IMG/VR virus record: IMGVR_UViG_3300044723_007969
Length of the DNA stretch: 64,000 nucleotides
Strand: one strand, 5' to 3'
From: a virus
Taxonomy: Duplodnaviria; Caudoviricetes
Positions within the stretch are counted from its first letter, which is position 1. Each line of letters starts with the position of its first letter. Made by a program: the position numbers and the translations under genes. A model generated the notes under the pieces. It was not told the DNA's origin. It made no database searches and saw nothing but the letters and a program-made list of their open reading frames with translations. Positions 2,794-27,982 of this stretch are shown piece by piece.

Positions 2794-3786
2794 CTAGTGG
2801 CTGACTCTCACTGCCGCTAATACTGATCCATTACCACTTGTTGTTTTGCTTGTAAGAGCTCTACCAATCACGTTGAATGCTGTGCATTCTGATTTCTGAG
2901 CCGCTTTAGCATAACCTGGTACTGATGCAGAAATAAGTCTGTCACCTTTGTTTACTGTACCAATAACTTTTACGTCAACTCTACCCGTCATTGCGATGTA
3001 AGGGTGAGTATCGTCTGAACCTGCGCCACCATTCATTTTGAATGCCGCTTGGTGTTCACCAGATACAACACCAAACACTTCGTCTGATGCTTCTTCGTTC
3101 ACTTTGCAAATTTCTTCTGCTCCGCCTAGTGCTACAACTGTTCCCGGTGCTAATACTTCATTCGCCGCAAATCTTTCTGCTACGTCTGAGTATTGTGCCG
3201 CTGTTGCTGTTCCTGTCAAGTTGGCTACTAGTGTTCCTACTGCGGAAAGAGTCAAGTCACCTGTACTTGCACCTGTTGCCGTTGTTGTTCCTAGTGTGAA
3301 CGTGTCTGCTGACTCGTCCCACATAAACACAGCATTGTCACCAGTTGATCCTCTTTCAAATACAAAACCAAGGTCGTTAGCGTTTGAGCCAGCGCCTGTG
3401 TTTAATTCGATAAGTGGGTCAGCATGAGTGGTAACAGTTGACGCAATCGTGGTCGTCGTACCGTTTACAGTTAAGTCTCCTGTCACTACAACGTTACCTG
3501 AGAACGTTGCTGACGTGTCATTTAAAACAAGTTCGTTGTTACCGTCTGCCGCCATGGTAATCGTTCCGTTTGTTCCTGTGTCAGTTACTGTGATCGATGT
3601 GTTTAATTGTGAAATACTGTTTTGTGATAGACCCGCTAGTGAGTCGTCCACATATTTCTTGTTGGCCACGTCACCGTCTGCCGATGGTGCCGCCGTCGCC
3701 ATTCCTGTTATGGTGTTCGCACTTGCTGATATTACTATATCACCAACTGAAATACCGTTGTGTACTCTAAAGTTTCTTGTTGTCAT
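2794..3786 (-). CDS. fibre-like structural protein with C-terminal G2-like chaperone domain
   Basis: GDLTVNGTTTT..DPLIELN module; C-term YSDVAERF..PGTVVALGG..GRVDVKV..KGD. Confidence 0.7.
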   Translation of the reverse strand: MTTRNFRVHNGISVGDIVISASANTITGMATAAPSADGDVANKKYVDDSLAGLSQNSISQLNTSITVTDTGTNGTITMAADGNNELVLNDTSATFSGNVVVTGDLTVNGTTTTIASTVTTHADPLIELNTGAGSNANDLGFVFERGSTGDNAVFMWDESADTFTLGTTTATGASTGDLTLSAVGTLVANLTGTATAAQYSDVAERFAANEVLAPGTVVALGGAEEICKVNEEASDEVFGVVSGEHQAAFKMNGGAGSDDTHPYIAMTGRVDVKVIGTVNKGDRLISASVPGYAKAAQKSECTAFNVIGRALTSKTTSGNGSVLAAVRVSH

Positions 3787-3834
3787 GGTTCCTATATCTC
3801 CCGCATGATTGTGTTTGATTTAATGATGAGCCGT

Positions 3835-3876
3835 AAAAAAACGCCCCAACAGTAGTATTTACCAATTGGGGCGTTT
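3835..3876 (-). terminator. terminator hairpin with a late promoter (TAAATA, 3856-3861) in its loop
   Basis: minus strand AAACGCCCCAA-ttggTAAATActactg-TTGGGGCGTTTTTTT. Confidence 0.75.
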
Positions 3877-3906
3877 AAAATTATCTCTAAGGTTTAGTTT
3901 TGCCTA

Positions 3907-5889
3907 CTACACTGCCGCTAATGAGTACTGTACTTTAGCCGCTGTTACGCCACCTGTGCTCTGTGCTTTAACTTCTACAGTACCACTGTTGTAGTTTGCA
4001 GTAATTGTCGCTAAATCACTTGATCCAGTGTTCGTAATACCGTACACTGTAATGAATGCAGTTGTACCGTCGTGTACCACTGTACCTTTCATTGCCGCGT
4101 ATTCTGTGTTTGCTGTGTCTGTTAACTGAATGAATATCTCAGCACTTCTGTAAGAAGAAGCGTTGAATGTCATTATGCTAGTTGCAGTTGATGTGAAGTT
4201 AACTGAACTCGTCTCAGATCTCGCAACACCACCTGTCACTAACGAAGTGTTGTCAGCACCCGTGATCGCAAAAATCCTTGCCGCACTGTGTGGGGCAGAA
4301 GTGAATGTGATGTTGGTACCTGATACTGTGTAGTTCTCAGTTGGTTCTTGGAACACGTTGTCGATGTAAACGAATACATTGTTCACGTTTTCTGGAGCCG
4401 ATCCAAAGAAACCTGTGAACGTTGTAGTTGATCCATCACCTGTCGCTGTCTCTTTGGTGAAAGTTGGAGCATCACCGGCAATCGCTATGTTAACAAATGT
4501 TGATCCATCTTGACAACCCTCATACTGTCCAGTCTGTGAGTTAAATCTAATGATACCTGTCGCACCTGTTGGTCTCTGTGATGTTGTACCAATCGGCAAT
4601 CTCCATGCATCAGTTGAACTTGAAGCATCTAAAACATAACCAGGTGTGTTTGTTCCGATACCGATCCTGTCTGTGCTGGCGTCAAGGTAAAGCAGGTTGG
4701 TCTCAGTCTGTCCTGAAAACACTGCGTCATAGTCTCCAAGACCACTGTTGTAGGTGAATGTTCCACCGTTGACTACTAGGTTGGTTGACACTGTCACAAC
4801 ACCGGTCGAGTCAGCGATTGCGATCGCCGCTGTGCCATCATTTGCTTTTACAGTGCTTGTCTGTAGGTCTGAAGTGATGATGTCTGCTGTTGTTGTTATG
4901 TTACCAGTAGAGTCTGCGATAGTCATTGACAATGTGCCGTCCGCGGCAGAAACTGTACCAGTTTCTGTGTCTACAAATGTAGCCACGTTGGCTCTTAAAG
5001 AAGCATAACTGTCGATAGTCACGTTACCTGCTGTGGTTCCATCCTCACCTGATGTGACCGCGAAAGCGAATTGGTCCGCTGATTCGTCCCAGATGAATGA
5101 AACGTTGTCGTCCGATCCTCTGTTGAAGAATAGACCTTGGTCGAACGTGTTGCCCGCTCCGCCTGAGTTGTTCTTCGCTAATGTTAATAGCGGATCTTCG
5201 ATAACCAGCGTCTGTGAGTCAATGGTGGTTGTGGTACCGTTTACAGTAAGGTCACCACCTATTGTGGCGTTTCCTGTGGTTGTCACTGTGGTGAAAGCAC
5301 CAGTTGATGCTGAATTGGCACCGATCGCTGTTCCGTCGATTTCACCAGACGCTACGTTGATCTTTGAAATAACTACCTCACCAGTTCCATCTGGTGTTAT
5401 AGTGATGTCACCGTTTGACACTGTACTTTGGATAGTTGAAGCAGTTGTTGAAATAGTTGTCGTTCCAAGCGTGATTAGTGTATCTTCAATCTTCGCTCTC
5501 TCTGTGCCTGCTATGTCAAATCTGATGATGTCTTCATCCGGATTTTTCTCAACCTGTATTCTTGTATCCTCGTCAGCGTCTTTAAGTGTATCACCTGAAG
5601 CCAGGTTGGCCCAAACATTGTTTGAGTAACCCTCAATAGTGCTAAGTGTACTGTTGTATCTGATCTGTCCGTTTGCCGCTGAACCCGGTCTCTGGGCTGA
5701 TGTTCCTGCCGGAATTGATATAGCATCAGTCGCCGAGATATGTAGTGTGGTTGCCGGCGAAGCCGTTCCAATACCTACTCTACTATTCGTTACGTCTAGT
5801 GCTAATAAGTTTGTTTCAAATGCTAAATCTGTTCCTGACCTTGCCAGATTGGCAGATAACATCTGTCCTGTAATTCGTCCTATTGCCAT
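3907..5889 (-). CDS. tail fibre / virion structural protein
   Basis: shared MAIGRI N-terminus; P.GT..QRP..G.IR(Y/F)N modules; D.D.DT.IQVE..DED.IRFD; GDGSTTTF..VYIDNV.QEP..NY module. Confidence 0.7.
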   Translation of the reverse strand: MAIGRITGQMLSANLARSGTDLAFETNLLALDVTNSRVGIGTASPATTLHISATDAISIPAGTSAQRPGSAANGQIRYNSTLSTIEGYSNNVWANLASGDTLKDADEDTRIQVEKNPDEDIIRFDIAGTERAKIEDTLITLGTTTISTTASTIQSTVSNGDITITPDGTGEVVISKINVASGEIDGTAIGANSASTGAFTTVTTTGNATIGGDLTVNGTTTTIDSQTLVIEDPLLTLAKNNSGGAGNTFDQGLFFNRGSDDNVSFIWDESADQFAFAVTSGEDGTTAGNVTIDSYASLRANVATFVDTETGTVSAADGTLSMTIADSTGNITTTADIITSDLQTSTVKANDGTAAIAIADSTGVVTVSTNLVVNGGTFTYNSGLGDYDAVFSGQTETNLLYLDASTDRIGIGTNTPGYVLDASSSTDAWRLPIGTTSQRPTGATGIIRFNSQTGQYEGCQDGSTFVNIAIAGDAPTFTKETATGDGSTTTFTGFFGSAPENVNNVFVYIDNVFQEPTENYTVSGTNITFTSAPHSAARIFAITGADNTSLVTGGVARSETSSVNFTSTATSIMTFNASSYRSAEIFIQLTDTANTEYAAMKGTVVHDGTTAFITVYGITNTGSSDLATITANYNSGTVEVKAQSTGGVTAAKVQYSLAAV

Positions 5890-20309: not shown

Positions 20310-22040
20310 TTATACCTGTCCGCCGCCACCTGTGCCACCTGGCGTCTGTCCACCTGGCGTCTGTCCTGGCTGTCCTGGCTGTGCTCCGCCTGGTTCTGGT
20401 GCGTCTACATCTGCTGTTGGCTCTTCGAATTGATCCAGGTCGGCACTGATACCCGATTGTGTAACTCCACCACCTCTCAATTCATTTGATTTAGTTTGTT
20501 TCTTCTGTGGTACATTGTTTTCTTCTGCCCAAAGTTCGGCATTTCTTGCCATTTCTTCTTCGCTCAATCCTAAATATCTTTTTAGTGCAAATCTTTTACT
20601 CATGTAAGGCAGTTCTGCCACCTGTGAAAATGTGTTGACCCTGCTTTGGTCCATTTCTGTCTGTCTGTACTGTGCAAAGTTCTGTGGTGGATTCAATTTA
20701 AGACCAAACATACTGTTGTCTATGTTGTATCCTTTTGATTTGATCCATAATTTGAACTCACTGTCAAATGTTTCTGCCAACATTGATTGTAATCTAGCAC
20801 AATACTTGTTGAATCTCAATTCCTGGATGTATGCAGTACCCACTCTACCATCATTGTACTGTTGTCCACCGTCTTCTGCACCTGTTGGTAGATAAGAACT
20901 TGGAATTCTCAATCCTCTGAACAGTTTGTTTGTGAAGAATCTCAAGTCATCTATCTCACCAAGGTTTGTACCACCCGGTAGTGTGTCCACTTTAGAACCT
21001 CTACCCTCTGCTGTCTGTGGGAAGAAGTAATCTTCGTTTATTGACATTGGGTTGTATGTTGCATCTATGAAGTTTGCTCCACCTGATGCACTTGGAATTC
21101 TTCTTTGGTTGATCTCGTTTTTGACCCTCTCAACGAACTGCATAGCCAAGTGTGTTGGCATGTTACCCACGTCTATGTAGAATACCCTTCTTTCAGGTGC
21201 TCTTTGAACCCTGTAGATGATGATTGCGTCTTCTAATAATTCTTTTTGTTTGTAAACCTTGAATACTTGTTCTAACACCGACTGTCCAAATGGGAATAGG
21301 TTGTCTAGACCATCTGACATTGACATGTGGATCACATGTTCTGCGTTTATGTTGTACGCATTCATGGTCTTGTAGAATCTTCCACCTGCGTTTCCGCCTG
21401 CGAAGCCTGACATGTTGTTTGTGGCACCTGCGTTTGCATAACTTGATCCGTATGCCGCTGTTCCACCGCCTGTGGTTCCACCACCACCATAAGTTTGATT
21501 TGGTGTGATCTGTGTTGCACTCAATCTCTGTAAGTTAGGGTTTATATCTCTGATCACATACTGTTCAGGTTTCTTGCCCTCTGATTCATTTACAACGATC
21601 CTGTCAACTTTGGCGTTGTCTATGTACAACCATTTCTGTGTTTCCGGATCCCTAACGAAGAAACAGTCTCCGTATTTTAATGCGTTCCTGAATATCCTAA
21701 AAATTCTCTTGTTGAACTTGTTTGACTTGGTCCATTGTTGAAGTGCCTTCTTGAGAAGTTTCACTTCGTGTTCTGTTGTCTCATCATTGAACACTATGTC
21801 GAACGGAGTTTCGTTCTCTGTGTTCTGCTGTGTCGAGAATTCCGCCAGGATGTCCAGTGCCGCATTGATCTCCGAGTCTGAATCCATTTGGTCATACTGG
21901 AAGTATCTCTGTATCCTGTTGGGGTGTCCTGTGTACACGTCCGGAAGATAGGAACTGTAATTCCTCTTCGCGAAGTTGGGCACTTTCTCTCCACTTATGG
22001 GAGAAAGGTTAGCGTCTTTAAAATATTTTTTCCAAGCCAT
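20310..22040 (-). CDS. gp20: portal protein (gp20-like)
   Basis: LLEDAIIIYRVQRAPERRVFYIDVGNMP, EDYFFP, TLPGG.NLGEIDD. Confidence 0.96.
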   Translation of the reverse strand: MAWKKYFKDANLSPISGEKVPNFAKRNYSSYLPDVYTGHPNRIQRYFQYDQMDSDSEINAALDILAEFSTQQNTENETPFDIVFNDETTEHEVKLLKKALQQWTKSNKFNKRIFRIFRNALKYGDCFFVRDPETQKWLYIDNAKVDRIVVNESEGKKPEQYVIRDINPNLQRLSATQITPNQTYGGGGTTGGGTAAYGSSYANAGATNNMSGFAGGNAGGRFYKTMNAYNINAEHVIHMSMSDGLDNLFPFGQSVLEQVFKVYKQKELLEDAIIIYRVQRAPERRVFYIDVGNMPTHLAMQFVERVKNEINQRRIPSASGGANFIDATYNPMSINEDYFFPQTAEGRGSKVDTLPGGTNLGEIDDLRFFTNKLFRGLRIPSSYLPTGAEDGGQQYNDGRVGTAYIQELRFNKYCARLQSMLAETFDSEFKLWIKSKGYNIDNSMFGLKLNPPQNFAQYRQTEMDQSRVNTFSQVAELPYMSKRFALKRYLGLSEEEMARNAELWAEENNVPQKKQTKSNELRGGGVTQSGISADLDQFEEPTADVDAPEPGGAQPGQPGQTPGGQTPGGTGGGGQV

Positions 22041-22046
22041 ACTTTA

Positions 22047-24293
22047 TTATACTAGACTTCCTGTCATGTTTGCAACATTATTATTCATGTTTTTGGTATT
22101 TCTTTCAATCATACTTGCTATCATGTTGTTCGTATTTAACGTTTTGTTGAGGTTGTTGATAGCCACTACCAACTTGTCTTCTCCTCCGCCGGTTATTTTG
22201 TCTTTAACCAACATAATACTGTCTTTGAAATCCTTCAATCCATCCTTAAAATTATTGAGTTCCAATGTTTGTGCATTTTTCAGTGGATCTCCCTCCATTG
22301 TGCCCCGGTACATGGCATCGTGTGCGCCAAGTAACCCAATCATTTGTTTTGGTGTGACCACTGCTTCCATGCCGTGTAGCATGGCCGGTGTTCCACTGCC
22401 GAAGTTCTGGAACAGTGCTCCTGTTCCCATGGTTCCTTTGTTGAACATGGATTTGGCATCTACTGCATCTTCATTGTACCCTTTGAATATTCCATACCCT
22501 GCACCAAGTATTCCTCCTATTGCGGCTCCAACTGCTGTTCCCACAATAGGTATCGCAGATCCTATCATTGCACCAGTTAACGCACCGCCTGCCGCGGCTC
22601 CGCCAACACCTAAACCTTTTTTCGCGTGGGTGTCTGCACCTGCGGCATACTCACCACTGGCACCAGCAATACCTACACCGGCCAACGCCCCACCTGCCTT
22701 TAATCCTGCTTTTCCCATTCGAGCCATGACACCTGACTTGCCCATTCCTATCGCTGTACCCAGTGCCACAATGCTGACCTGCTTGGCGAAGTCAAATATC
22801 AGTGCCCCCGCCAGTGCCGCCATCAGCGCCTTGCCGAAGTTGGCCGGACTGAAACCCTTGATCGTCTCAACAATTTTTTCCACGTATCCTTTGAAATCAC
22901 CTGTGATGAATTCTGTAAACCTTGTTATGGCTGGGGTCAGTCCTGATAAAAATTGTGTCTGTACTTCAGCGAACGCGGTCTTCAATCTTCTCATCTCTTC
23001 ATTGAATGGCATCATGGTTTCTGCCAGTTCTTTGGCTTTTGCCGCTTGTTCGGCCGCGGCCTCGCCTACATCCATCTGTTGTGTGGCAAAGTAGTTCATC
23101 GCATTGGCAAGTTCTGGAAACTGCCTCAAGATTATCTGATCCATCTCATCCATAAAGCCTTGGGCGTGCGGTTTAAACATGGCCATTATTTCTGGTGCTG
23201 TTTTACCTGCTTTAACCAAGTTTTTGAAGTTCAAGAACAGATCCGCGATCTCTGGATTAAGACCCATTAACTGTTCACCGAGTTCGTCAAACGGTACACC
23301 AGATTCCATCATCATCTTGGCGTTGTCATGCATGGCGGGTGCCATCACTTTCAATCCTGCCAGGAATAGGTTCGCTTGAGTCGCCTGGTCTTCAGTCAGT
23401 CCGGTCAATGCCTTTTGGAGTAGTGCATCTTTCTGCTGAGCCTTGACTTCGTCATCGATCTGTTTTCTCTGGATACCTGTTGTTTTGGCTAATAGATCAA
23501 GTTGTTTGGCGTACTTGGTAGTTCTCTCGGCCACCTGTCGTGCTGTCAGTGTTTCTTTTATTTCCGCGAATCTCTGTCTTTCCAGGTACGTGCCCATGTA
23601 GTCGTTGAGCTCTTCTGTTGTGATACCAAGATTGAACAGACCGTCTGCCAAGGCCTTGTCCCTTATGGACAGTGAGAACTGTGCAAGGTTCTTTATACCC
23701 TGTTCCGTGGTACCAAAAAGTGATGACAGTGCTAATGCGTTGTCGGCTACTAATCCGCCAAACTCACCCAGTGGTAACATCGCGGAGTGTGCCATCTCCC
23801 TCATGCCGATCAAACTCTTACCAAAACTTGCACCGACCTGAGACAACTCCCTGAACACATTCACATTGTAGTCTAGGCTTCCTGCAAGTGCCTGAACTGC
23901 GTCTCCGGCCAGTCCAAATCTGGAAAACATGCCCGCCAGTTGTTCCATGTCATTGGACGCCGAGGCCGCACCGTCGCCTAACTTGAACATTGTCTTCACA
24001 AATGGTCCGGCAAAACTAGTGGCCTTGTCTAAAGAATCGGAGAACTCCGCTACGGATTCTTCTGCCTTGTCAAATTCCTTGTTGATATCTTTTAAGTTTT
24101 TTATCTCTTCATCATCGAGTTTTTTCTTTGCCTTCATCGACTTGATGGTTGCTTCTAACTGTTTCTGAAATTCTTTCTGCTCTTTTGCTGATTTACCAGC
24201 CAGTGAGCCCGTTATGGCACCCGAACGAGATTTGTCGTCGGTCATCCTCTTTAGGGTTTCTATGAGTTTTTCTATTTCTCTTTCCAATTCCAT
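22047..24293 (-). CDS. tape measure protein (probable)
   Basis: ~750-aa helical A/G-rich protein with a hydrophobic GAAAGGALTGAMIGS segment and a PAMLHG.EAVVTP motif; ATG at 24293. Confidence 0.65.
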   Translation of the reverse strand: MELEREIEKLIETLKRMTDDKSRSGAITGSLAGKSAKEQKEFQKQLEATIKSMKAKKKLDDEEIKNLKDINKEFDKAEESVAEFSDSLDKATSFAGPFVKTMFKLGDGAASASNDMEQLAGMFSRFGLAGDAVQALAGSLDYNVNVFRELSQVGASFGKSLIGMREMAHSAMLPLGEFGGLVADNALALSSLFGTTEQGIKNLAQFSLSIRDKALADGLFNLGITTEELNDYMGTYLERQRFAEIKETLTARQVAERTTKYAKQLDLLAKTTGIQRKQIDDEVKAQQKDALLQKALTGLTEDQATQANLFLAGLKVMAPAMHDNAKMMMESGVPFDELGEQLMGLNPEIADLFLNFKNLVKAGKTAPEIMAMFKPHAQGFMDEMDQIILRQFPELANAMNYFATQQMDVGEAAAEQAAKAKELAETMMPFNEEMRRLKTAFAEVQTQFLSGLTPAITRFTEFITGDFKGYVEKIVETIKGFSPANFGKALMAALAGALIFDFAKQVSIVALGTAIGMGKSGVMARMGKAGLKAGGALAGVGIAGASGEYAAGADTHAKKGLGVGGAAAGGALTGAMIGSAIPIVGTAVGAAIGGILGAGYGIFKGYNEDAVDAKSMFNKGTMGTGALFQNFGSGTPAMLHGMEAVVTPKQMIGLLGAHDAMYRGTMEGDPLKNAQTLELNNFKDGLKDFKDSIMLVKDKITGGGEDKLVVAINNLNKTLNTNNMIASMIERNTKNMNNNVANMTGSLV

Positions 24294-24331
24294 ATGGTTT
24301 TTAATCACCGGGTTTTATACGCACATAAATA

Positions 24332-24377: not shown

Positions 24378-25286
24378 ATGGATAAGCCATTAACAAACAT
24401 GCCAAACATACCAGGAACGCCCACAACTAGTGCGGCTGAAAATCCACTTAAAAAATATTACAGACAACCGTCGATCTACATCAAGTTGCCCTCCAAGGGA
24501 CGGTTCTACGATGCAGACAGTTTCACACCCACAGAGACCGGTGACATACCCATATTGCCGATGACAGCAAAGGATGAGATGACTTTGAAGACACCAGACG
24601 CACTGATCAACGGTCAGGCCACGGTCGATGTCATCGAAAGTTGTGTGCCGAACATCAAGAATGCCTGGAGGATCGTCAATCATGACTTGGACGTCATACT
24701 ATTGGCCATGAGGATTGCGACCTATGGTGAGAGCATGACCTTAACTGGTTCGGTGCCTAATACCTCAGATACTGTGGAACACACAGTCAGCCTTCCGGCA
24801 ATGTTGGAAGAGGCGGCCAAAGAAGAAATCACAGACACTTTTGCAACCAAGAGCGGGTTTCAGGTCAAAGTAAAACCAATGGACTACAAGCAGTTAACAG
24901 ACACACAGATCGGTGCATTCGAGAAACAGAAACAGTACGCGGCGATGATGTCAAAAGAAGGGATAGACCCTGAGGAAAAAGGAAAACTGTTTGCTGAAAA
25001 CTTCAAGCAGTTGACTGAATTGAACTTCAACGTGCTCTACAATGCGATAGCAGAACTACACACACCAGATGCTATTGTGGTTAAGGACCACGAACAAATA
25101 AAAGAATTTCTTGACAACGCACCAAAAAAAGTTGTCGAGGAGATACAAGAAGGCCTTGCAAAGAACAGAATACAAGGAAGCATCAAACCTATCAAGTTGA
25201 AAGCAACTGAAGAGCAGATCATGAAAGGTGCTCCGGCCAATTACGAAATGCCGATCACGTTTGATAGCTCAAATTTTTTCGCATAA
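24378..25286 (+). CDS. baseplate hub assembly protein / tail chaperone (gp26-like)
   Basis: YIKLPS.G..Y, P.TAKDE..L, DLD.IL.A.R.A.YGE, C-terminal NFF. Confidence 0.75.
   Translation: MDKPLTNMPNIPGTPTTSAAENPLKKYYRQPSIYIKLPSKGRFYDADSFTPTETGDIPILPMTAKDEMTLKTPDALINGQATVDVIESCVPNIKNAWRIVNHDLDVILLAMRIATYGESMTLTGSVPNTSDTVEHTVSLPAMLEEAAKEEITDTFATKSGFQVKVKPMDYKQLTDTQIGAFEKQKQYAAMMSKEGIDPEEKGKLFAENFKQLTELNFNVLYNAIAELHTPDAIVVKDHEQIKEFLDNAPKKVVEEIQEGLAKNRIQGSIKPIKLKATEEQIMKGAPANYEMPITFDSSNFFA
25274..25280 (+). other. putative -1 ribosomal frameshift site T-TTT-TTC
   Basis: heptamer is in register with the 0 frame, one sense codon before the stop; the -1 frame is open into 25298-25510. Confidence 0.65.
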
Positions 25287-25297
25287 ATCTGCTGTCA

Positions 25298-25510
25298 ATG
25301 GGGGACTCTGACATTATCAAGTACCTCAAGGAGTTCGACAGCCATATCAAGAACATGAAAATGGAAGTATTCAAGACCATGTGGTACATGCGTGGGGGCA
25401 TATCCCATCAGGAAGCACTGAATCTGAGCCCGGAAGACAGGAAGGTAATACATGCTTTGGTAAAAGAAAACATGGAGACAACCAAAAAAACCGGTCAGCC
25501 TTTCTTCTAG
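25298..25510 (+). CDS. gp51-like / tail chaperone C-terminal module (likely frameshift extension)
   Basis: WYMRGGIS..EA.NLS.EDR; no SD before the ATG. Confidence 0.65.
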   Translation: MGDSDIIKYLKEFDSHIKNMKMEVFKTMWYMRGGISHQEALNLSPEDRKVIHALVKENMETTKKTGQPFF

Positions 25511-27067: not shown

Positions 27068-27084
27068 TGTGTGATATTTAAGGT

Positions 27085-27520
27085 GCTGTCAGAGACGGCT
27101 TACGCCATCTGAAACTTCGCTTACGCTCGTTTCTTTTTTAACTTACGCAGTTGTAAAAAACTTGAACGCAGTGTGCGTTCTCTGTGGTAGATGAGCAGTC
27201 ACAATTCGGCTATTTCTAGCCGAACTGACTTAAACTCTGTGGTGAGTTCACAGTCACTATACATCGCTACTCTCGTCGGGCGGTTGTGCTGTACCCGTTT
27301 GCTCATTCATTACAACGCGAATCTACCAAACCCCTGTATAATGGTTTTTGGTAAATCTGAGGTCTATCTTTTTCTAGGAGCCTCATCATTTTTTGCTGTT
27401 TGCATCTAAGGATTCACCTGTCGCTTGTTAGCCGCATTTCCTTGCTCACTGGTTGCGATGCTATGTTTGCCTATGGGGAAATTTGTTTGCCTGGTGGAAG
27501 GATACGGTTGCCCTTCAACT
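27085..27520 (-). ncRNA. putative large structured non-coding RNA (alternatively a transcribed origin)
   Basis: ~440 nt with no credible ORF, about 10 stems, GAAA/GTAA tetraloops on the minus strand, internal repeats and its own sigma70-type promoter. Confidence 0.55.
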
Positions 27521-27522
27521 AC

Positions 27523-27551
27523 TATATAACACAGATAAAAATGTCAGTCAA
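27523..27551 (-). promoter_or_regulatory. sigma70-type promoter TTGACT-N17-TATATA with extended -10 TG
   Basis: minus strand TTGACTgacatttttatctgTGtTATATA pointing into the structured element. Confidence 0.6.
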
Positions 27552-27574
27552 TCTTTTTGGCTTTAAATACCGCT

Positions 27575-27982
27575 ATGCATTGGACGTACCAAGGAAATGA
27601 AATTACCAACATGCCGGAAGATGTTGTGGGATTTGTTTATCTCATAACAAATACAACCAACGGTAGGATGTACATAGGCAAGAAACTTGCTAGATTCAAG
27701 AGAAGTCGTCCACCACTCAAAGGCAGAAAGAACAAGCGTAGATACAAGGTTGATTCTGACTGGCAAGACTACTACGGTTCAAGCGATGATCTCACAATCG
27801 ATGTCAACAAAATTGGTAAAGATAAATTCACGAGGGAAATACTTTTCTACTGCAAGTCCAAGGCGGAACTATCTTATGTTGAGGCACGTGAACAGTTTGC
27901 ACGTAAGGTCCTAGAAACTAATGATTACTACAATGGTCATATCCGTGTGAGAGTACACGGCAAGGGAATAATCAAGTCATAA
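27575..27982 (+). CDS. GIY-YIG endonuclease (T4 endonuclease II / DenA-like)
   Basis: GFVYLITN..NGRMYIGKK, DW..YYGSS, F.REIL, E...Q, YYN; ATG 27575 lies 5 nt after TAAATA. Confidence 0.85.
   Translation: MHWTYQGNEITNMPEDVVGFVYLITNTTNGRMYIGKKLARFKRSRPPLKGRKNKRRYKVDSDWQDYYGSSDDLTIDVNKIGKDKFTREILFYCKSKAELSYVEAREQFARKVLETNDYYNGHIRVRVHGKGIIKS

Follow-up and report, generated by a model that had tools for sequence, protein, structure and literature searches.

Conserved slippery site at the end of a gp26/gp51-family gene of giant T4-related phages points to a programmed −1 frameshift producing a short and a long form

The locus belongs to an uncultured, marine, giant phage related to T4. Among cultured phages, the giant phages Phosso and Atu_ph07 are nearest to it, and 121Q, RaK2 and PA5oct come next. 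In the window, that is, the whole 64-kb stretch of DNA that was analyzed, a gene of the gp26/gp51 family (ORF1) ends at a slippery run from which a second reading frame continues, and the following features were recognized at and around this junction:

20310-22040, minus strand: T4-type portal gene
22047-24308, minus strand: 753-aa neighbor of ORF1, weak tape-measure candidate (PHROG 167 and 794, 'tail length tape measure', E 2-3e-4)
24378-25286, plus strand: ORF1, short form of 302 aa plus stop codon TAA (25284-25286), gp26/gp51-family baseplate-hub assembly protein
25265-25267, plus strand: TAG closing the −1 frame just upstream of the heptamer, the frame being open from −16 relative to the ORF1 stop
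25271-25277, plus strand: second canonical heptamer A_AAT_TTT, seen by direct reading and overlapping the next one
25274-25280, plus strand: slippery heptamer T_TTT_TTC in the X_XXY_YYZ register of ORF1, proposed −1 shift site
25280-25510, plus strand: −1-frame extension of 76 codons (RINLLSMGD...KKTGQPFF) plus stop codon TAG (25508-25510), predicted C-terminal helical domain of a 377-aa long form
25298-25300, plus strand: ATG from which gene callers begin a 70-aa ORF2; unconserved, with no Shine-Dalgarno sequence
27557-27982, plus strand: segE-like GIY-YIG homing endonuclease gene (PF19835, 2e-36)

An earlier sequence-only reading of this DNA had described the gene at 24378-25286 as gp26-like, and this identity is borne out by profile searches: ORF1 scores 42.6 bits against the Pfam family PF12322 (T4_baseplate; gathering cut-off 24.5, E 7.3e-11), which places it in that family, and it matches PHROG 150, 'baseplate hub', with an E-value of 5.5e-14. 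The window holds one PF12322 body, that of ORF1, and one extension. Both cysteine pairs (CPxC ... CxxC) that are present in most members of the family, including T4 gp26 and gp51, are absent from the window's clade when 24378-25283 is compared with the relatives; at these places the clade has VPNTSDT.. and ..GAPANYEMPITFDSSNFF, as do the short paralogues of loci L104-L108. ORF1 and the gene at 22047-24308 are divergent, the portal gene follows on the far side of the latter, and this same divergent neighbor is kept in Phosso, 121Q, RaK2 and PA5oct. The tape-measure candidate that had been placed next to ORF1 does adjoin it; its identity as a tape measure is suggested by weak PHROG matches, and no similarity was found between the 753-aa protein and T4 gp29. 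A tape-measure similarity of its homologue was noted by the annotators of RaK2, and the PA5oct record lists the homologue as a virion protein detected by MS. A gp46-like nuclease is also found among the neighbors of ORF1, and the segE-like gene adjoins a gene-free stretch at 27082-27552.

Direct reading of the 3′ end of ORF1 gives ...GAT AGC TCA AAT TTT TTC GCA TAA, which confirms both the ending AAT TTT TTC GCA TAA and the in-register T_TTT_TTC that had been pointed out before. The site has the properties of a −1 frameshift site, namely an X_XXY_YYZ heptamer in the 0-frame register and a −1 frame that is open across it; since this frame is open only from position 25268, downstream of the TAG at 25265-25267, the shift must fall within 25268-25283. 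The −1 reading, TTT TTT CGC ATA AAT CTG CTG TCA ATG ..., joins the called ORF at 25298-25510, which lies in the −1 frame relative to ORF1, and the path and the junction peptide proposed in the sequence-only reading were both recovered from the reading frames. The predicted products have 302 aa and 301 + 76 = 377 aa, with the junction ..SSNFF/RINLLSMGD.. (the slash marking the point of passage into the extension), and a slip at the overlapping A_AAT_TTT would yield a protein identical to that obtained by a slip at T_TTT_TTC.

In a single sequence, the heptamer alone is not beyond chance, as TTTTTTC occurs in 25 copies in the window against 17.2 ± 3.5 expected. This abundance in an AT-rich window is the point in favor of a functionless arrangement, due to chance, to faulty assembly or to decay of the gene; nevertheless, five cultured phages and hundreds of independently assembled sequences show the same arrangement, and Turkey5, a sixth cultured phage, has the same two-ORF layout in its record. 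On comparative sequence grounds, what goes beyond chance is the in-register conservation at synonymous sites together with a −1 ORF, devoid of a start codon in most relatives, that is conserved in all of them, and an origin by chance, error or decay is in effect already refuted, with a probability close to nil.

The comparison of relatives relies on two scans. The first, anchored on ORF1, comprised 80 loci of uncultured phages (IMG/VR), 14 loci from a later scan and five cultured phages (Atu_ph07, Phosso, 121Q, RaK2 and PA5oct); the second, independent and anchored on the extension motif, comprised 80 loci out of at least 598 matches. The in-register site is kept in every relative that is complete at this point, that is, in about 170 loci of uncultured phages and in Atu_ph07, Phosso, 121Q, RaK2 and PA5oct. 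The slippery run lies 1-6 codons upstream of the stop codon in nearly all the homologues (13-14 codons in L038, L039 and L047), and wherever a homologue in the ORF1-anchored scan extends as far as the site, its conserved downstream ORF is read in the −1 frame. In L044 and L045, the tblastn match to ORF1 has an in-frame stop codon close to its beginning (~3001-3050), with a normal heptamer and extension, indicating that the real start of the ORF1 homologue lies downstream.

Clustering of the ORF1 homologues at 60% amino acid identity gave 27 clusters, and xxT TTT T(T/C)C is present in all 27 of these groups, which share less than 60% identity. The residue preceding the two phenylalanines varies (N, H, S, R, T or L), yet the third base of its codon is always T. 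The second phenylalanine codon is TTC in 26 of the 27 clusters and is replaced by TCC (serine) in the remaining one, in genes where 224 phenylalanine codons are TTT versus 91 TTC (29% TTC); the predominance of TTC at this position is expected if its C opens the Arg, His or Gln codon of the −1 frame. Across 61 unique junction regions, bases −1 to +3 and +5 are invariant, and column conservation follows a −1-frame codon periodicity that starts at the C of the heptamer. The sequence AAT TTT TCC was found in nine loci, all from one clade, where A_AAT_TTT is the sole heptamer. In the extension-anchored scan, all 56 unique junctions of the split loci are in the −1 frame with an in-register TTTTTTC, preceded by AAT, AGT, GAT, CAT or GGT. 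Both the slippery site and the frame offset are thus conserved among divergent homologues, synonymous sites included (27/27 clusters; 56/56 junctions), and the alignment of homologous gene pairs, which had been suggested as a check together with the initial proposal, yielded neither a variable frame offset nor a homologue without a slippery site.

The conservation extends downstream of the run. When the −1 frame is translated beginning at the heptamer, 71-81 residues are obtained (76 in most cases), which align from the first residue in all the relatives and share the consensus R-[IM]-[KR]-L-L ... W-Y-M-R-G-G ... E-R ... K-K-T-G-x-P-F-F. The profile built on this extension retrieved 662 matches at E ≤ 1e-3 among 1.8 billion representative proteins, and the short matches are ORFs of 44-102 aa, delimited by gene callers, which begin at many different positions of the profile, a scatter characteristic of a domain that lacks its own start. 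No family was found for the extension (the 70/76-aa −1 ORF) in Pfam, PHROGs, NCBIfam or PDB sequences, and an AlphaFold2 model of the window's extension alone is helical, with a pLDDT of 89.2.

An alternative explanation is that ORF2 is a separate 70-aa protein translated from the ATG at 25298 by re-initiation or coupling, the heptamer being merely the codons of a conserved ..NFF C-terminus. The ATG lies at codon 7 of the extension, 11 nt past the TAA, equivalents are present in L008, L010, L013 and L014, and the two phenylalanines are conserved even in T4 gp26 (..KEFFELL), where no shift takes place; in addition, ATGA overlaps occur in Atu_ph07, Phosso and L015-L017, and a TAATG overlap in 121Q, so that translational coupling is possible in these relatives, although not as a general mechanism. 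By contrast, near relatives (L003-L007, L009, L011 and L012) have CTC (Leu) or AAA (Lys) in place of the window's ATG; in RaK2 and PA5oct, whose records leave the extension unannotated, there is no ATG, GTG or TTG at its start, and in 33 of the 56 unique junctions of the extension-anchored scan none of these codons occurs within the first 12 codons. The downstream ORF is conserved from the shift site on, and most relatives have no start codon for it. Furthermore, conservation in the −1 frame reaches upstream of the ATG (R-I-x-L-L), with a codon periodicity that sets in at the heptamer, all 27 divergent clusters agree at the synonymous sites of the heptamer while T4 has TTC TTT, and natural fusions show the extension working as a C-terminal domain. 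The window sequence has no Shine-Dalgarno-like purine run before the ATG at 25298, as had been stated from the sequence. A separate ORF2 product is, in view of these data, very unlikely to account for the locus, although in the window itself a 70-aa protein might to some extent be translated from this ATG, independently or by re-initiation.

Natural fusions of this kind, in which the long form is encoded in a single frame, are represented by P0121 and about 19 of the best 150 of the 662 representatives, with lengths of 319-351 aa and a PF12322 body, the extension forming the very C-terminus. The junction in these proteins reads ..L-D-x4-F-R-x-K-L-I.. and has no double phenylalanine, indicating that they are not sequencing slips. 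Among the 80 loci of the extension-anchored scan, 73 are split, with a single body gene and a −1 extension, and seven are fused in-frame; an adjacent short paralogue, carrying neither extension nor heptamer, is found in all seven fused loci and only in those, in the order short-long in five and long-short in two. The two-gene lineages are the following:

L087/L088 (= L109/L110), 3001-4035 and ~4090-4908: in-frame long form and short paralogue
L104-L108: in-frame long form and short paralogue

The occurrence of both gene orders suggests more than one duplication event, and the consistent presence of the short paralogue indicates that, where the frameshift was lost, the two forms are maintained by separate genes. 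These lineages share with the window the body family and the extension domain, and the long form of the two-gene phages corresponds to the predicted trans-frame product to within one junction residue; they differ in lacking the heptamer and in having the long and short forms as adjacent paralogues. The AlphaFold2 model of a natural long form (L087:3001-4035; pLDDT 80.9, pTM 0.71) matched entries of BFVD described as 'baseplate hub assembly protein/chaperone' (E down to 1.2e-20, TM 0.69/0.83), a fold match to annotated gp26/gp51 proteins that concerns a relative at ~30% identity and not the window protein itself; the predicted model of this relative thus has the fold common to annotated gp26/gp51 proteins.

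As regards the way in which the −1 frame is entered, both T_TTT_TTC and A_AAT_TTT fall in the H_HH.U_UU.Y class. In E. coli, this class ranks with the most efficient −1 motifs, and U_UU.Y tetramers shift readily (PMC4066793). The same 377-aa protein could also arise by transcriptional slippage, with RNA polymerase adding one U on the T6 run, since an mRNA longer by 1 nt encodes the identical ..NFFRINLL.., and the T run is the invariant element of the site; nevertheless, the run comprises only 5-7 T (5 in the AAT TTT TCC clade), the site always obeys the codon-register rules of tandem tRNA slippage, the A_AAT_TTT variant included, and TTTTTTC is not avoided elsewhere in the window. Productive slippage by bacterial polymerases occurs on longer runs than this, of about 8-9 or more. 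The treatment of slippage run lengths in PMC5009743 is in line with about 8-9 or more, and slippage by the polymerase can be given only a slim chance of being the mechanism.

A downstream RNA stimulator is not evident in the window (z −0.02 for the single-sequence fold of 25281-25370, and −0.46), RNAalifold gave no consensus pair for the 11 nearest relatives, and no Shine-Dalgarno-like stimulator was found upstream of the heptamer. In 27 representatives, the downstream folds have a mean z of −1.5, with values of −5.8 in L097, −5.4 in L015 and −4.2 in L049. Strong hairpins are located 3-8 nt past the slippery site in L097, L099, L015, L049, L100, L074 and L001, and the stem in L097 and L099 is apparently kept through paired changes; such lineage-specific hairpins could act as frameshift stimulators. 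A conserved 'TATAA' after the heptamer was considered as a late promoter and rejected, as it is just GTA TAA or CGT ATA AAx, and relatives with a longer 0-frame tail (RaK2, PA5oct and the L055 group) do not have it.

Taken together, the comparative evidence supports the central proposal of the sequence-only reading, a programmed −1 slip with products of about 302 and 377 aa: ORF1, a gp26/gp51-family gene, would very probably be translated into both forms by means of T_TTT_TTC. Most ribosomes would terminate at the TAA at 25284 and release the short form of 302 aa; in a fraction of them, tRNA-Phe would slip back one base on T_TTT_TTC, or equivalently on A_AAT_TTT, and these ribosomes would proceed in the −1 frame to the TAG at 25508, giving the 377-aa long form with its 76-aa helical C-terminal domain. 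We infer both the ribosomal nature of the shift and its efficiency. A requirement for both the short and the long form is suggested by the strict conservation of the −1 frameshift and by the short paralogue that accompanies all seven in-frame long forms, and both forms may be needed in a fixed ratio for initiation of the hub and the tail tube. By analogy with lambda G/GT, the common body might be the chaperone and the extension might contact a second partner. A common body and a partner-binding 76-aa tail, made at a set ratio, constitute a testable hypothesis, and the presence of the site in the cultured phages RaK2, 121Q, PA5oct and Atu_ph07 makes it testable there. No report of this frameshift was found in the literature searched, and none of the GenBank records of 121Q, RaK2, PA5oct, Atu_ph07, Phosso and Turkey5 has a joined CDS annotated; in these records the long form is missing or mis-annotated, and in hundreds of metagenomic phages the gene calls give the extension as a 'hypothetical protein' of 44-102 aa with an arbitrary start.

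Among known systems, the nearest in its logic is that of lambda G and GT. Xu, Hendrix and Duda reportedly described in 2004 a conserved −1 frameshift in the tail assembly chaperone genes of long-tailed phages. According to a review, conservation of the G-T frameshift extends to long-tailed phages 'except T4' (PMC5009743). As in lambda, the proposed slip takes place in a tail-assembly gene, a few codons before the stop codon, yields a short product and one extended at the C-terminus, and concerns a gene located beside a tape-measure-like gene; the heptamer is G_GGA_AAG in lambda and T_TTT_TTC in the window. The lambda pair lies between the tube and tape-measure genes on the same strand, whereas ORF1 is divergent from the tape-measure candidate and does not share this synteny. 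In Pfam, PHROGs and NCBIfam, neither ORF1, which matches only PF12322 and phrog_150, nor the extension belongs to a known tail-assembly-chaperone family. Foldseek searches of the PDB with the long form and the extension gave no match at E ≤ 1e-3, and the VIA wide structure search returned generic helical matches only (Z ≤ 7.3); as the models match no solved structure beyond generic helical hairpins, no fold link to known tail assembly chaperones was seen. Of the earlier designation as a lambda G/GT-style tail chaperone, the short/long slip logic stands, the link in sequence and synteny does not, and none in fold was seen; judged by sequence, the analogy is one of logic only and not of family membership. 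The E/E+E' tail chaperone frameshift of P2 uses a T-rich heptamer, TTTTTTG. P2, a contractile-tailed phage, thus resembles the window in its U-rich heptamer and its short and long forms, and differs in that the protein belongs to another family and the gene lies between the tube and tape-measure genes.

In terms of protein family, the comparison is with T4, where gp26 and gp51 are listed as 'hub assembly chaperones' (Leiman et al. 2010, PMC3004832, Table 2); gp51 is needed for assembly and absent from the particle, and the roles of both proteins in hub assembly are still obscure (PMC3004832). T4 gp26 (208 aa) and gp51 (249 aa) match PF12322 over the full length of the model, with E-values of 8.8e-64 and 3.9e-52, and the C-terminus of gp51 is about 45 aa longer than that of gp26. 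T4 and the window are alike in the PF12322 family, in the existence of a short form and a longer one with an additional C-terminal tail, and, for gp26, in the ..FF.. end; they are unlike in that T4 has two divergently transcribed paralogous genes without a heptamer. The 3′ end of T4 gene 26 is GAG TTC TTT GAG TTA CTA TAA, with FF of the C-terminal ..KEFFELL encoded by TTC TTT and gene 25 coming next, in agreement with the previous remark that such a slip is not the described mode for T4 gp26/gp51. The retention of FF in T4 gp26, where there is no shift, indicates that the motif has a reason at the protein level. T4 gene 26 also yields an in-frame internal product, 26', and ORF1, compared with gp26, has about 95 aa more and no counterpart of the cysteine pairs.

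When the extension profile was compared by hhalign with a profile of 27 gp51 homologues, the best match was the C-terminal tail of gp51 (residues 223-249; E 5.8e-4, probability 29%); a plain HMM search of the extension against gp51 was not significant (1.5-2.5 bits). An hhalign match to gp51 residues 36-65 (E 0.004) was judged spurious, because this region belongs to the PF12322 body and the gp51-family profile moves the best match to the C-terminal tail. The gp51 tail and the 76-aa extension are plausibly homologous, and the short/long parallel between the T4 paralogues and the window is, as far as the sequences indicate, established as one of architecture. The precomputed annotation of the T4 gp51 homologues P0273-P0364 lists a further Pfam family, PF28602, which is not given for P0121, the natural long form; the region that this family covers is probably the C-terminal tail of gp51.

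A broader scheme, to which we give somewhat less than an even chance, would make gp26/gp51 the T4-type functional counterpart of lambda G/GT, the short/long pair being universal in long-tailed phages. The ancestral T4-like state would then have been the slip on T_TTT_TTC, replaced in T4, the textbook 'exception', by a duplication, with gene 26 for the short form and gene 51 for the long one, as several uncultured lineages would have done independently.
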